This document shows, one piece after another, positions 24,993 through 60,223 of a stretch of 64,000 nucleotides of DNA. The stretch is from sequence record OQ378934.1, one strand, 5' to 3'. The notes beneath the pieces were generated by a model, which made no database searches, had not been told where the DNA came from, and worked only from the letters and a program-made list of their open reading frames with translations. Every line of letters begins with the position of its first letter. Position 1 is the first letter of the stretch. The position numbers were made by a program, and so were the translations under genes. This DNA comes from Escherichia phage LH2.

Positions 24993-25802
24993 TTAGAAAC
25001 GAGATGCGACTTTCGCATATACACTTACAATATCTTCTGCACCAGGTGCAGCTTTATCTTCTACAGCTTCAGTGACGAAATTCAGTCCGGCTGCTTCAGT
25101 ATCAGGAGTATTTATACCCTCAGTAATAGTGCTTTCATCTTTATTAGACTTCTTCACCATTTCTACGATGGCACTCAATTTACTTGAGAATTCATCTGAA
25201 TAATCCATACCTTCGACCAGAGCAGAGACTTTTTCTTTTTGAGACTCAGTCAGATCTTTAGTACTTTCGCTCAATGCCACTTCACGCTGCACATAATTGA
25301 TATATGCGTCACGCTTATTGAGTTCTTCGAACAGACGAGCTGATTCTTCTTTATGTTCTTGCAGCTCTTCTTCCATTTCAGCTACAACATCAACTGATTC
25401 TTCTGGAACAACAACGTTGTGTTCAACAAAGAGCTCTTTTAATCCACCAAGCATGGATTCAAACAGTTCGGCTTTGATGCCTTTATCAACTGCTAATTTA
25501 TTTTCAGCGAGCCATTCTTTTGCAAGATGGTCGATGAATTTAGAAGCTTGCTCAGCGATTTTCTTCTCAGCTTTTTCTTCGGCTTCTTCTTTATTTTTTT
25601 CTACTTCTTCTTCTGCTTTTTCAGCAATTTTAGCGATATGAGATTCAGCTAATTTAACGGCGTGCTGCTTGACGGTAGCTTCGAATACAGTGCCGAAAGT
25701 TTCTTTTGCTTCCGGAGAAATATTAACTGATTCGAAAATACTATCAAGAGCAACGGAAGCATCAATTTTTTGCGCTTCAGCAATCAGTTGTTCTTTAAGC
25801 AT
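24993..25802 (-). CDS. 22: prohead core scaffold protein gp22
   Basis: 269 aa; acidic coiled-coil. Confidence 0.85.
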   Translation of the reverse strand: MLKEQLIAEAQKIDASVALDSIFESVNISPEAKETFGTVFEATVKQHAVKLAESHIAKIAEKAEEEVEKNKEEAEEKAEKKIAEQASKFIDHLAKEWLAENKLAVDKGIKAELFESMLGGLKELFVEHNVVVPEESVDVVAEMEEELQEHKEESARLFEELNKRDAYINYVQREVALSESTKDLTESQKEKVSALVEGMDYSDEFSSKLSAIVEMVKKSNKDESTITEGINTPDTEAAGLNFVTEAVEDKAAPGAEDIVSVYAKVASRF

Positions 25803-25832: not shown

Positions 25833-26471
25833 TTATAACGCTTTTTTCATGGCCTCTGCGAGAGCCATATAGGCGTCATCGGCACTTGTATCGGCTTCCG
25901 CCGTCTGTGATTCGGTAATTTCCTTAGGAGTTACCCATGCATCTGGAGCACTTGGACCCCATACTGCATCAACACCTACAGTTAATTTGAATCCTTCGTT
26001 TACGATACGATAACCTTTATTTGTGTCAGTCAATGAACCTAATCCACGAGAAGAAACTCCTGGAATCCATCCGGCACGAATATTAGCTGCTAATTTATCT
26101 CCAGGACCATGGTCACCTTCAATAACACGAGCTCGTCCGTATACGTCATTTCCTTTCCACCACATATCTTCTATAATGATAGCGGCTTGCATCGGGTCAA
26201 CATTAGCGCGTGGAGGATGATTTAATTCTCCGAGAGCTTGTTTAGTTAAAACTTGCTCATTGATATAGTCTTTTACCGCTTTTTCTAATATGCGTTTTGG
26301 ATAAAGACGTTTATTTCTATTGACGACTTCCGCTTGCATGAATATTCCTTCGATGTATAAACCAGGTTTTAAACCTAAGTCTTTTCCATCATGGGATTCA
26401 AGCATTGGCACGCCATCAATAATTTCGCCAGGTTGACCCCAAGTTTCAATTAGTAATTGGGGTTCATTCAT
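25833..26471 (-). CDS. 21: prohead protease gp21
   Basis: 212 aa as in T4. Confidence 0.9.
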   Translation of the reverse strand: MNEPQLLIETWGQPGEIIDGVPMLESHDGKDLGLKPGLYIEGIFMQAEVVNRNKRLYPKRILEKAVKDYINEQVLTKQALGELNHPPRANVDPMQAAIIIEDMWWKGNDVYGRARVIEGDHGPGDKLAANIRAGWIPGVSSRGLGSLTDTNKGYRIVNEGFKLTVGVDAVWGPSAPDAWVTPKEITESQTAEADTSADDAYMALAEAMKKAL

Positions 26472-53471: not shown

Positions 53472-53924
53472 ATGGCATATTCTGGAAAATGGGTTCCTAA
53501 AAATATATCAAAATATAGAGGTGACCCTAAAAAAATTACGTATAGATCAAATTGGGAAAAATTCTTTTTTGAATGGTTAGATAAAAATCCAGAAATTATT
53601 GCATGGGGTAGTGAAACAGCAGTAATTCCTTATTTTTGTAATGCAGAAGGGAAAAAACGTAGATACTTCATGGATATTTGGATGAAAGATTCTTCTGGAC
53701 AAGAATTTTTTATTGAAATAAAACCTAAAAAAGAAACACAACCACCAGTTAAACCAGCACATCTAACGACCGCAGCGAAGAAAAGATTTATGAATGAAAT
53801 TTATACATATTCTGTTAATACTGACAAATGGAAAGCAGCGCAATCTTTAGCTGAAAAGCGTGGAATAAAATTTAGAATTCTAACAGAAGATGGATTACGA
53901 GCTCTTGGCTTTAAGGGGGCATAA
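53472..53924 (+). CDS. 4: head completion protein gp4
   Basis: 150 aa as in T4. Confidence 0.85.
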
Positions 53925-54748
53925 TGGCTATTTTTCAAATAATTAATGAAAGCACTCCCCAAGTTCCAAAGGTTAAGCAATCATTAAACGAAAAGAAATG
54001 GATTCAGATAGGTCTTGAATATAAAAAGGCCAAAGCAAAAGGAATGACAGGAAAGCAATTTGCTGAAGAAAGAGGAATTAAATACTCTACGTTTACTTCA
54101 GCAATGTCAAAATATGCTTCAGGAATTAAAACAGCTGAAAAGATTCAAAAGCTTGAATCAAAACCAATGAATAAACTCAATAAGCAAGAAAGACAACTGC
54201 TTATGATAAATTCATTCAGACAAACATTGCGCGATAAAATTCGTAATGAAGGTGCAGCAATTAATAATAAAACCAGAAAGTGGTTTGCTGAAACTATTAA
54301 GCAGGTAAAAGGACATAAAGTTGTTCGCCCGCAGCCGGGACGAATATATGCTTTTGCTTATGATGCTAAACACAAAGAAACTCTTCCTTATTGGGATAAA
54401 TTTCCTTTGATAATTTACCTCGGTTTAGGTAAACATAATTTAATGTACGGATTGAACTTGCACTATATTCCACCTAAAGCTCGTCAGCAATTTCTAGAAG
54501 AGCTTTTAAAGCAATATTCGAATACACCTACTATTACTAATAAAACGAAATTAAAAATTGATTGGAGTCAAGTGAAAGGATTTAGGGGTGCAGACCAAAT
54601 GATTAAGGCATATATACCCGGTAATATTATGGGTAACCTTGTTGAAATCGCCCCGAAAGACTGGGCGAACGTTGTATTAATGCCACTCCAAAGCTTTTAC
54701 TCCAAAGGAAAACGTTTCTCTGCAAACAAAGTTTGGTCAAATATCTAA
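53924..54748 (+). CDS. 2: DNA end-protector protein gp2
   Basis: 274 aa as in T4. Confidence 0.85.
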
Positions 54749-55434: not shown

Positions 55435-56147
55435 ATGAAACTAATCTTTTTAAGTGGTGTAAAGCGTAGTGGAAAAGATACTACTGCAGATTTTATCATG
55501 AATAATTATTCTGCAGTTAAATATCAACTTGCTGGTCCTATTAAAGATGCATTGGCTTATGCATGGGGCGTATTCGCAGCAAACACTGACTATCCTTGCT
55601 TAACTCGTAAGGAGTTTGAAGGAATTGACTATGATCGTGAGACTGATTTAAATCTGACTAAATCAGAAGTAATCACGATTATGGAACAAGCATTTTGCTA
55701 TCTTAACGGTAAAAGCCCAATTAAAGGTGTGTGTGTTTTTGATGACGCAGTTAATTTCGTAGCATTTAATAAGATTATTGACGTTATAAATAATATTGAA
55801 GATCAATGGTCAGTCCGTCGTCTGATGCAAGCCCTAGGTACGGATTTGATTGTTAATAACTTCGACCGCATGTATTGGGTAAAATTATTTGCTTTAGATT
55901 ATCTTGATAAATTTAACTCAGGTTATGATTATTATATCGTTCCTGATACTCGTCAAGATCATGAAATGGATGCGGCTAGGGCGATGGGTGCTACAGTAAT
56001 TCATGTAGTTCGTCCTGGTCAAAAATCCAATGATACACATATTACAGAAGCTGGATTGCCAATTCGTGATGGCGATTTAGTAATTACAAACGATGGTTCT
56101 CTTGAAGAACTTTTTTCTAAAATTAAAAATACACTAAAGGTACTATA

Positions 56148-56148
<1 letters not shown>
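55435..56148 (+). CDS. 1: deoxynucleoside monophosphate kinase gp1
   Basis: 237 aa; P-loop GVKRSGKDT. Confidence 0.85.
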
Positions 56149-56845
<697 letters not shown>

Positions 56846-56857
56846 TTTCACAAAGTT

Positions 56858-56894
56858 GTTTACACGTTGATGAGGTAGTGATACTATTACCTCA
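56858..56894 (+). promoter_or_regulatory. early promoter (GTTTACA, 17 nt, TACTAT) with embedded stem-loop
   Basis: Stem TGAGGTA/TACCTCA around loop GTGATACTAT; same loop as the module at 57191. Confidence 0.5.
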
Positions 56895-56917
56895 TCAAAA
56901 TTAATTAGGAAAATAAA

Positions 56918-57190
56918 ATGAAAACTTTCAAAGAATTTATCGTTGAATCTGCTCTTAATGAAGAAGTAAAAATTAGCAAAGCTGTCAAGACTATGATTGC
57001 TGACATCAATTACCTATATGGTATTGATTTAACTGACTATGTAACAGTTGGTAACAAACGTAACTATTTCGTGTTTGACATCTCTGAACTTGACCAGAAT
57101 CAAATTAACAACATTGAGCGTTTTGCTAATGATAAGGGTCTTCGACACGAGCCTGGTGGCTATAAAAAATACGCAATTTATTTAAAATGA
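56918..57190 (+). CDS. internal-protein-like protein with capsid-targeting-sequence-like N-terminus, 90 aa
   Basis: N-terminus MKTFKEFIVESA resembles the T4 internal-protein targeting sequence (MKTYQEFIAEA, from memory); lies in the ipI-equivalent locus. Confidence 0.55.
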   Translation: MKTFKEFIVESALNEEVKISKAVKTMIADINYLYGIDLTDYVTVGNKRNYFVFDISELDQNQINNIERFANDKGLRHEPGGYKKYAIYLK

Positions 57191-57229
57191 GTTTACTTTT
57201 AGATAGGGTAGTGATACTATTACCCTATC
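57191..57229 (+). promoter_or_regulatory. early promoter (GTTTACT, 17 nt, TACTAT) with embedded stem-loop
   Basis: Stem GATAGGGTA/TACCCTATC around the same loop GTGATACTAT. Confidence 0.5.
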
Positions 57230-57248
57230 AACTACAGAGGAGAATAAA

Positions 57249-57431
57249 ATGAAACGTTGTGAATTAATTCGAAATGTTGCTATTGCAATTTCTGCTTCCG
57301 CTTTTAGTTTTTCAATGTTTGTTGGATTTATATGCGGATTATTAACTACAGCAGAAAATGTGTTTTCACTTGTAGTAGCATTTTTAATTGGTTTAATCGC
57401 TATCGTTATGGATAAAATTTCTAAAGGTTAA
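57249..57431 (+). CDS. small hydrophobic (membrane) protein, 60 aa
   Basis: ATG ORF with GAGGAG Shine-Dalgarno; two hydrophobic segments. Confidence 0.45.
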   Translation: MKRCELIRNVAIAISASAFSFSMFVGFICGLLTTAENVFSLVVAFLIGLIAIVMDKISKG

Positions 57432-57433
57432 TA

Positions 57434-57721
57434 ATGATTCTTTATGCGAAAGTATCATCCATTGAAAATGGATATAAATATGATCAAGATGCGGCTAAAG
57501 CCTTGATTGATGATTATGGCATTTTAACGTGTTTTGAAGTTGAAAAGGTTTACATTGACCGCTCATCTTCTCAGGTTAAATTAGTGAATGAAGACCGTAA
57601 ATTTAATACAGTAAATTTTGATTTCTTTATTGAAACAGAAAAAGGTCCTCTTGAATATGATATTTTCAAGAATCCTTTGGGTCTTGAATGCATCGTAAAT
57701 ATGTATTATCATAAATGGTAA
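57434..57721 (+). CDS. hypothetical protein, 95 aa
   Basis: ATG ORF; stop codon abuts the tRNA middle promoter. Confidence 0.5.
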   Translation: MILYAKVSSIENGYKYDQDAAKALIDDYGILTCFEVEKVYIDRSSSQVKLVNEDRKFNTVNFDFFIETEKGPLEYDIFKNPLGLECIVNMYYHKW

Positions 57722-58431: not shown

Positions 58432-59097
58432 ATGTTCCATTACATTTATAAAATAACAAATAAAATTAATAATAAAATCTATATAGGCGCTCATTCTACC
58501 GAAAATTTAGATGATGGATATATGGGTTCTGGTAAATTATTAAAAAGAGCCCAAGACAAGTATGGTATAGAAAATTTTTCTAAAGAAATATTAGAGTATT
58601 TTGATGATAAAGAATCTATGCTTGAGTCAGAAAAGAATATTGTGACTGAAGAGTTTTTAAAGCGCCCTGATGTTTATAATTTGAAATTAGGTGGTGAAGG
58701 TGGTTGGGACCATTTAAACACTAAAGAATATTTGGATAAAAAGAAAGAAGCTTCCTTAAAAGGGGCTGCTGCTTTTAAAACCAGATTTGAGAACGACCCA
58801 GACCTTAAAGAAAAATATCGTAAAATGGGTTCAGAAAGGTTTAAACAGCTTTGGGATAATCCTAAGTATAGAGAGAAATTTTTAAATATTAAATCTTTCT
58901 TGGGTAAGACCCATACTCCTGAAACTATTAATAAAATGAAAGAATCTCACGCCAGAAATAAACACCAACAGGGCGAAAAGAATTCCCAATTTGGTATGAT
59001 GTGGATTCATTCATTAGATGAAAAAGTTTCTAAACGTATTAAGAAAACTGACCCAATTCCAGAAGGATGGTTTAAAGGTCGAAAAATGAAATTTTAA
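58432..59097 (+). CDS. segB: GIY-YIG homing endonuclease inside the tRNA cluster (SegB-like)
   Basis: 221 aa; YIYKITNKINNKIYIGAHS ... DDGYMGSG ... NLKLGGEGG; sits between tRNA-Ile and tRNA-Arg as segB does in T4. Confidence 0.8.
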   Translation: MFHYIYKITNKINNKIYIGAHSTENLDDGYMGSGKLLKRAQDKYGIENFSKEILEYFDDKESMLESEKNIVTEEFLKRPDVYNLKLGGEGGWDHLNTKEYLDKKKEASLKGAAAFKTRFENDPDLKEKYRKMGSERFKQLWDNPKYREKFLNIKSFLGKTHTPETINKMKESHARNKHQQGEKNSQFGMMWIHSLDEKVSKRIKKTDPIPEGWFKGRKMKF

Positions 59098-59179: not shown

Positions 59180-59487
59180 CAAGAAACCGGGTCGCTACCG
59201 GTAAGTCGTCGGACTGATGTTCCCTGGAGTATAGTTTCTCCCACAGTTTTACTGTGTTCTGATTCTTTACTATCACAACAGAAACGGCGCACCGAATTAT
59301 CGATTCGAGGAAATATCTTTGCCGTAAGCCGAGTAGCGTTTTTGACGGAACGTTCGGATATGGTCGAGATATGGCCTTTTAAAAATATTGAGTAGCGTCA
59401 ACTGCTTAATAACCGGGTTCAAATCCCGGCGTTTCGTACAAACACTTGCCTTAGCAGGTGGAACCCCGACAAGATTGCCGCAAGGCT
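59180..59487 (+). ncRNA. stable-RNA region (T4 rnaC/rnaD-like), boundaries not resolved
   Basis: About 300 nt ORF-free and GC-rich, directly after tRNA-Arg, ending at a terminator; contains a tRNA-like T-arm CCGGGTTCAAATCCCGG. Confidence 0.4.
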
Positions 59488-59488
59488 T

Positions 59489-59516
59489 AGCCCCACCCGA
59501 AAGGTTGGGGCTTTTT
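59489..59516 (+). terminator. rho-independent terminator, copy 1 of a duplicated terminator
   Basis: Hairpin AGCCCCACCCGAAAGGTTGGGGCT plus TTTTT. Confidence 0.7.
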
Positions 59517-59518
59517 GG

Positions 59519-59526
59519 TATAAATA
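59519..59526 (+). promoter_or_regulatory. late promoter TATAAATA
   Basis: Exact consensus 40 nt upstream of the ORF at 59566. Confidence 0.5.
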
Positions 59527-59565: not shown

Positions 59566-60024
59566 ATGAAATCATATGCTCAATTTTTAAATGAAGCATC
59601 CGCTTCAGATGTTCGCGCTGTAGCAACTGCTGCTATTAAAGCTGGTAAATATTCTTATAAAGATGCTTCTGACGAATCTCGGTACAAGTTCTACGACGAT
59701 ATGAGAGCTGAAGGCTTTGTGGGTAACTATGTTACCACCGCCTGGAAAAGCCTGGTTGCTACTGGTGCGGCTTTCGAAAAACCTTCCGGTAAACCTGCTC
59801 CTAAGGCTGACCCTAAAGCAGCACAAGAGAAAAATATTGCTAAAGGAATTATCTCTAGGTATGAAGCAATTCTTAAAGAACTTTTGGTAATTAAGACCGA
59901 AGGCCAGAAACTTGCGCGAGCTCATAGTTTCAAAGATAACCCACATGCTCATGACCTAGAGTATGTTGAAGATCTCCAAAAAATCATCAAAGACCGCATT
60001 TGGTCTGCTAAACAAATCAAATAA
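59566..60024 (+). CDS. internal-protein-like protein with capsid-targeting-sequence-like N-terminus, 152 aa
   Basis: N-terminus MKSYAQFLNEASA resembles the T4 internal-protein targeting sequence; driven by a late promoter; flanked by duplicated terminators. Confidence 0.55.
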   Translation: MKSYAQFLNEASASDVRAVATAAIKAGKYSYKDASDESRYKFYDDMRAEGFVGNYVTTAWKSLVATGAAFEKPSGKPAPKADPKAAQEKNIAKGIISRYEAILKELLVIKTEGQKLARAHSFKDNPHAHDLEYVEDLQKIIKDRIWSAKQIK

Positions 60025-60031
60025 CATTCTT

Positions 60032-60059
60032 AGCCCCAGCCGAAAGGTTGGGGCTTTTT
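60032..60059 (+). terminator. rho-independent terminator, copy 2 of a duplicated terminator
   Basis: Hairpin AGCCCCAGCCGAAAGGTTGGGGCT plus TTTTT; one mismatch versus copy 1. Confidence 0.7.
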
Positions 60060-60193
60060 GGTATCTAGGCCTTTCTGGATCTCTCTAGGCATCATTTAGT
60101 TTCTACCTTTTATAATATATTATCCTATCCTTTAATTGCCCCTCCCTGCCCTAGAATTCCCTAAAACTTTTTAAAAAATTTTTTCACAAAACT

Positions 60194-60223
60194 GTTTACA
60201 TCCCTGTTCTTCCATGGTACTAT
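60194..60223 (+). promoter_or_regulatory. early promoter (GTTTACA, 17 nt, TACTAT)
   Basis: T4 early promoter consensus upstream of the ORF at 60268. Confidence 0.45.

Follow-up and report, generated by a model that had tools for sequence, protein, structure and literature searches.

The 90-codon gene at positions 56918-57190 of Escherichia phage LH2 DNA (OQ378934.1) almost certainly encodes Ip9, the orthologue of the internal proteins of that name in phages RB15 and RB32. The whole 64,000-nt stretch that was analysed is referred to here as the window. Judged by sequence, the gene is an Ip9-family internal protein gene of a Tequatrovirus, at the internal-protein locus between 57B and trna.4. 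It thus belongs to an already catalogued, named and widely annotated family and is no new kind of element. The favoured explanation of its role, to which we assign a probability of about 0.6, is that Ip9 is packaged in the head, injected with the DNA and acts against a host defence.

Identity of the gene and its leader

The gene, its parts and the two head genes on which packaging and processing of its product would depend are as follows.

56918-57190, plus strand: ip9 open reading frame (ORF), ATG start, 90 residues beginning MKTFKEFIVESA
56907-56910, plus strand: ribosome-binding site AGGA, 8 nt 5' of the ATG
56918-56947, plus strand: predicted capsid-targeting sequence MKTFKEFIVE, codons 1-10 (sequence; alignment of full-length Ip9)
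56948-57190, plus strand: predicted mature body, residues 11-90 and the stop codon (AlphaFold2 model, physicochemical values, PHROG 7673 match)
25833-26471, minus strand: gp21 prohead protease (Pfam Peptidase_S77, E 1.5e-111)
24993-25802, minus strand: gp22 scaffolding core protein (Pfam T4_CASP, E 3.8e-90)

A preliminary description of this DNA, made from the letters alone, had presented the 90-residue ORF as a divergent internal-protein-like gene. The ORF exists as it was described, with its ATG and AGGA, but it is not new. Its product matches PHROG 7673, 'internal head protein', over 90/90 positions (E 3.5e-54). It is 86.7% identical to RB32 Ip9 (78/90 residues) and 84% identical to RB15 Ip9, which was recovered as P0011, and the homology to these named proteins spans all 90 residues. 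The gene was found by tblastn in 194 phage records, and the ratio of non-synonymous to synonymous substitution (dN/dS) between the window and RB32 versions is 0.29. Taken together with the PHROG match, these values mean that ip9 is a real gene and not a chance ORF. Pfam and NCBIfam contained no credible family for it. The RB32 orthologue is annotated 'Ip9, similar to RB15 and K3 Ip9, flanked by 43 bp direct repeat', and genes of the family are labelled 'internal head protein' in many genomes. According to GenBank notes and later papers, the name Ip9 was reportedly introduced by Repoila et al. in 1994 (EMBO J 13:4181). The AGGA of ip9 lies within a 17-nt repeat, AGGA(A/G)AATAAAATGAAA (repeat D9), that is common to the start of trna.4.

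The first seven residues of Ip9, MKTFKEF, are identical to those of T4 IPI, including F4 and F7. Residues I8-V9-E10, followed by Ser11, form an (L/I)xE site at which gp21 is predicted to cut after Glu10 (IVE|S). Both the nearness to the T4 capsid-targeting sequence and the prohead-protease-style site had been noticed in the preliminary description, and both are borne out. In the mutagenesis of the IPIII leader by Mullaney and Black, targeting depended mainly on residues 4 and 7 and processing on residues 8 and 10, and an Asp in position 10 prevented cleavage (as summarised in PMC9026906). In Ip9 both targeting positions are Phe, and position 10 is Glu, not Asp. The leader and its site are kept in 12/12 full-length Ip9 sequences aligned. 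A profile search recovered the leader in remote Ip9-like proteins as well, the E values of their bodies ranging from 5.5e-11 to 5.6e-4. Examples of these leaders are MKSFKEYLTE|S, MKSFKEFVTE|S and MKTFQEFLNE|A. Identity to Ip9 was measured for P0043 and is 31-38%. That the leader is retained in proteins as remote as P0043 suggests that selection acts on the peptide and not on the DNA alone. Only two ORFs in the window have a start of this type.

The cognate protease and scaffold are at hand, gp20, gp21, gp22 and gp23 all being encoded in the window, and the prohead core of gp22 is thought to be the target of internal-protein leaders (PMC9026906). Guided by its 10-residue leader, the Ip9 precursor would enter the prohead's gp22 scaffolding core, and gp21 would cut it after Glu10. 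The mature protein of about 9.3 kDa would remain in the DNA-filled head and then be ejected into the cell with the DNA. By analogy with T4 IPI-IPIII, packaging and injection of Ip9 are quite likely.

RB15 and RB32 Ip9 belong to the same family (84-87% identity over 90 residues) at the same locus with the same flanking repeats. There, however, the gene is second among three or four ip genes in a row and has the leader MKTYQEF, whereas the window gene is the sole internal-protein gene in its slot, directly after 57B, and has MKTFKEF. This is the variant found in the 57B-proximal genes T4 ipI and RB32 Ip5, so that one recombination junction must lie inside the leader-coding DNA.

The mature protein and its relatives

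As the preliminary description had stated, the body of the protein is unlike T4 IPI: the best local alignment of the two is confined to the leader region and the bodies are unrelated. Ip9 thus lacks the mature-protein homology to mature IPI (IPI*) by which membership of the IPI (Ip1) family is judged. The two are similar in mature size (9.25 kDa for Ip9, 8.0 kDa for IPI*), but the pI of mature Ip9 is about 6.5 compared with 9.0 for IPI*, and its 11 K+R residues are balanced by 11 D+E. This bears on the view that Ip9 is a mere structural head filler, a DNA counter-ion or an aid to core assembly, with no role after injection. Internal proteins were historically regarded as basic and DNA-associated, and IPIII mutants show head-assembly aberrations (PMC9026906). 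That role is nevertheless very unlikely for a protein that is not basic and whose locus is dispensable and has its content swapped between phages; leaderless homologues, moreover, are found in early operons of phages whose heads are not of the T4 type, as set out below.

The AlphaFold2 model of Ip9, built from a 20-sequence alignment, has a pLDDT of 79 and a pTM of 0.65. The body is predicted to consist of a helix (21-34), strands (42-44 and 50-54), a second helix (60-72) and strands (76-81 and 84-88), giving an (alpha-beta-beta)x2 fold preceded by the leader as a low-confidence helix. Invariant residues cluster in GNKRN (45-49) and NxxRFA...GLRxE (65-78). A profile search of PDB sequences gave nothing (best E 1.3), Foldseek found no match to the model in the PDB at E <= 0.001, and the structure matches in BFVD were to uncharacterised viral proteins only. 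The predicted fold thus has no informative structural relative in either collection.

Relatives are few. Among 1.8 billion representative proteins a profile search returned only 22, none of them annotated, some with the leader and others without it. When P0043, P0049 and P0053 were compared with cultured phages, almost only known Ip9 genes were recovered, together with weak partial matches such as one in Klebsiella phage vB_kpnM_D1; the source phages of these three proteins therefore lie outside the cultured-phage collection.

The Ip9 body also occurs outside the T-even phages, in two settings for which no description was found in the literature searched. In Kagunavirus siphophages it is a stand-alone, leaderless protein of 72 residues, 50% identical to Ip9 and starting exactly where the Ip9 body starts. 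Its gene is the first after an intergenic region of about 500 nt and stands at the head of a series of small genes that diverge from the replication genes, that is, at the head of an early operon. No gene for hydroxymethylcytosine (hmC) or for glucosylation was found in the Kagunavirus genome examined. The one methyltransferase there matches C5-cytosine methylases weakly and below threshold (E 0.005). In Kuttervirus (Ackermannviridae) an Ip9-like domain forms the C-terminal 80 or so residues of a 964-residue protein, most orthologues of which align at residues 1-863 or 1-881 only and are without the domain.

An example of the Kuttervirus protein is gp082 of Salmonella phage allotria (964 residues; L004 367-4152), which begins MAIPSFLNFLEE. 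Its N-terminal part is conserved and its C-terminus variable, with the Ip9-like domain present in a minority of phages. The downstream neighbours gp083 and gp084 begin MKPFIEYFKE and MKGFKDFLTE, and so resemble capsid-targeting sequences. The arrangement suggests that gp082-gp084 form an internal-protein-like locus in Ackermannviridae.

Probable function and its alternatives

Ip1, Ip2 and Ip3 each inhibit one distinct GmrSD-type enzyme, without cross-protection (PMC12373910), and IPIII is active in the cytoplasm when supplied leaderless from a plasmid (PMC9391042). McrBC is blocked by Bas37_0260, which phage KarlGJung encodes at its ipI locus (bioRxiv 10.1101/2025.11.20.689424). Each of the four proteins characterised from these loci is thus an inhibitor of type IV restriction, and the same activity is the best guess for Ip9. 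T4 IPI (Ip1), the injected inhibitor of the GmrSD enzyme from E. coli CT596, has the same slot, upstream cassette and first seven residues as Ip9. Bas37_0260 resembles Ip9 in locus, leader type and size (77 residues), but the bodies are unrelated and blastp aligns the first 12 residues only. That Bas37_0260 might itself be Ip9 was rejected, only the leader being shared; its neighbour is Ip5.

By analogy with these proteins, Ip9 is probably an anti-defence effector, which in the cytoplasm would bind and block a first-response host defence. The leaderless Kagunavirus homologue likewise points to action in the cytoplasm. The most likely target would be one variant of a modification-dependent (type IV) restriction enzyme, a choice to which we give slightly less than an even chance. 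The preliminary description had named the gene a candidate injected anti-defence effector. That proposal stands in so far as the leader, the IPI-unrelated body and the ipI slot agree with the published view (PMC3012670, PMC12373910); the gene itself is not new, having already been named Ip9. Earlier publications likewise cover the variability of the loci, the leader that their proteins share, the recombination cassettes at their flanks and the hypothesis of an anti-defence role.

Several points weigh against a packaged, injected, anti-restriction Ip9. No experiments on Ip9 were found in the searchable literature, where the name returned unrelated uses only. The functional analogy with Bas37_0260, with which Ip9 shares nothing beyond the leader, rests on locus and leader and not on homology. 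The predicted fold, a generic alpha/beta sandwich, gives no hint of a target. The lack of hmC and glucosylation genes in Kagunavirus makes a glucosyl-hmC-specific enzyme unlikely as the common target of the family. Finally, there is no late promoter TATAAATA directly 5' of ip9, the nearest on the plus strand being at 55785, so that late synthesis of the protein needs read-through.

The last of these points would be expected if Ip9 were an unpackaged, early cytoplasmic protein, made from the early-type promoter directly 5' of the gene, whose leader persists merely as part of the recombination homology of the cassette. The junction inside the leader-coding DNA, which gave the window gene MKTFKEF in place of the MKTYQEF of RB32 Ip9, is in keeping with this. 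We consider it extremely unlikely, however. The leader and its (L/I/V)xE site are kept at the protein level as far as P0043, which DNA homology could not explain, and T4 ipI, likewise without an adjacent late promoter, has the same promoter arrangement and is packaged (PMC9026906).

A different objection concerns the target. Ip9 might be injected or made early and act on something other than a type IV enzyme, either another defence system or a host-takeover function, common to phages with very different DNA chemistry. The leaderless body in siphophages that lack hmC and glucosylation genes, its occurrence at the C-terminus of some versions of a large Kuttervirus protein and the near-neutral mature protein (pI 6.5, against 9.0 for IPI*) are all consistent with such a target. 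On the other side stand the record of four out of four type IV inhibitors at these loci (PMC12373910; 10.1101/2025.11.20.689424) and the Kagunavirus methyltransferase, whose faint likeness to C5-cytosine methylases means that the DNA could be a type IV substrate. On balance a target outside type IV restriction is unlikely.

The same distribution allows a broader and tentative reading, which we regard as rather doubtful: that the Ip9 body is a portable effector module reaching the host cytoplasm by three routes. In T-even phages it would be injected as a protein tagged with the leader. In Kuttervirus it would be an optional C-terminal domain of a large protein that is probably packaged and whose gene has neighbours starting with CTS-like (capsid-targeting-sequence-like) leaders, and in Kagunavirus it would be made without a leader from the first early gene. 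On this reading the target would be a defence or host factor shared by enterobacterial phages whose DNA modifications differ, and not a glucosyl-hmC-specific enzyme.

Targets have so far been identified for four of the many internal proteins, and all are type IV restriction enzymes. Ip9, as a widespread member (194 sequenced phages) with leaderless relatives in unrelated phages, is a convenient candidate for another inhibitor-enzyme pair. It is also suited to asking whether internal-protein loci hold only anti-restriction proteins.

The locus, its cassettes and neighbouring genes

The gene order in the window is gp2 (53924-54748), gp3, gp1 (55435-56148), 57A, 57B (56390-56845) and ip9, followed by two small ORFs, eight tRNA genes interrupted by segB (58432-59097) and e.8-e.3-like genes. 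This is the T4 order 2-3-1-57A-57B-ipI-trna.4-trna.3-trna.2-tRNAs-segB, with ip9 in the ipI slot. The 1.5 kb around ip9 shows 98.6% identity to Escherichia phage BYEP01, and 835 phage records, most of them from Tequatrovirus, match this segment. The elements next to ip9 are listed below.

56390-56845, plus strand: 57B (Pfam Acb1, anti-CBASS nuclease, E 2.6e-60)
56858-56898, plus strand: upstream internal-protein-locus cassette, 41 nt (promoter scan; fold)
56859-56864 and 56882-56887, plus strand: early-type promoter of the upstream cassette, -35 TTTACA, 17-nt spacer, -10 TACTAT (promoter scan)
56867-56880 / 56885-56898: 14-bp stem-loop of the upstream cassette, overlapping the promoter (dG -18.1 kcal/mol, z -5.5)
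57191-57231, plus strand: downstream cassette copy, repeat D2, 80% identical to the upstream copy (alignment with T4 and RB32)
57202-57213 / 57218-57229: stem of the downstream cassette (dG -16.4 kcal/mol, z -3.9)
57249-57431: trna.4, 60/60 identical to T4 trna.4
57434-57721: trna.2, 90/95 identical to T4 trna.2

The two small ORFs had been taken in the preliminary description as further cargo of a hypervariable island. The internal-protein slot is indeed variable, its content being exchanged between phages, but the island does not extend to these ORFs, which are the conserved T4 genes trna.4 and trna.2. The intervening trna.3 (136 residues in T4) is absent at 57431-57434, so that trna.2 is directly 3' of trna.4; phage sutha has Ip9 and a gene at the trna.3 position. 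On the other side a known anti-defence gene, 57B (Acb1), adjoins the slot, and is still labelled 'RNA ligase' or 'hypothetical protein' in many records.

Papers that credit Repoila 1994 describe two highly variable internal-protein loci with a conserved leader and flanking promoter/stem-loop elements (PMC2839356, PMC3012670, PMC12373910). ip9 lies between 57B and trna.4 with such early-promoter/stem-loop repeats on both sides, and the downstream one is the promoter of trna.4. The same elements precede ipI and trna.4 in T4, and Ip5, Ip9, Ip7 and trna.4 in RB32; the copy 5' of ip9 is nearly identical to those 5' of T4 ipI and RB32 Ip5. Both ip9 cassettes have TTTAC(A/T), a 17-nt spacer and TACTAT, and fit the T4/PST-type PeSL consensus TTTACW-N17-TAYWAT (PMC4122927). 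PeSL are mobile regulatory cassettes in which such a promoter and an AT-rich stem-loop stand on both sides of a variable gene, as at ip9 (PMC2839356, PMC4122927), and the promoter/stem-loop elements of internal-protein loci are their analogues (Arbiol 2010, Comeau 2014). Nothing is unusual in the ip9 copies, whose 12-14 bp stems differ by compensatory changes that keep the pairing. The apparent junction in the leader-coding DNA fits the cassette-shuffling model of Repoila and Arbiol.

P0017, the 'ip7 protein' of Escherichia phage OLB35 (77 residues), is a leaderless chimera. Its N-terminal part is like the middle of Ip7 and its last 35 residues are Ip9-like (FNNIQRFANDKGLRHEPGGYKKYAIYLK), which suggests that recombination occurs within the bodies of the genes in addition to the cassettes at their flanks. 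A second copy of the promoter-proximal motif AAAAT..TTTCACAAA..TGTTTACA is found at 60175-60200 (repeat D5), 5' of the e.8-like gene at 60214, and is 85% identical to the copy upstream of ip9 at 56839-56864.

The other ORF in the window with a CTS-like leader is one of 152 residues at 59566-60024 on the plus strand, beginning MKSYAQFLNE|A with an LxE site. It lies outside the two classical internal-protein loci, in the interval from tRNA-Arg to the e.8-like gene that in T4 is occupied by rnaC and rnaD. A match to the late promoter TATAAATA is found 5' of it at 59519-59526, and it is flanked by a 36-nt direct repeat (within 59486-59526 and 60029-60064) that forms a GC hairpin followed by a T-run. 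The ORF occurs in 511 phage records, nearly always as 'hypothetical protein' (RB32ORF133c; PHROG 2280, function unknown). Going by its leader, which is kept in a 44%-identical Klebsiella phage homologue (MKFKEFLIE|A), it may be an unannotated internal protein.
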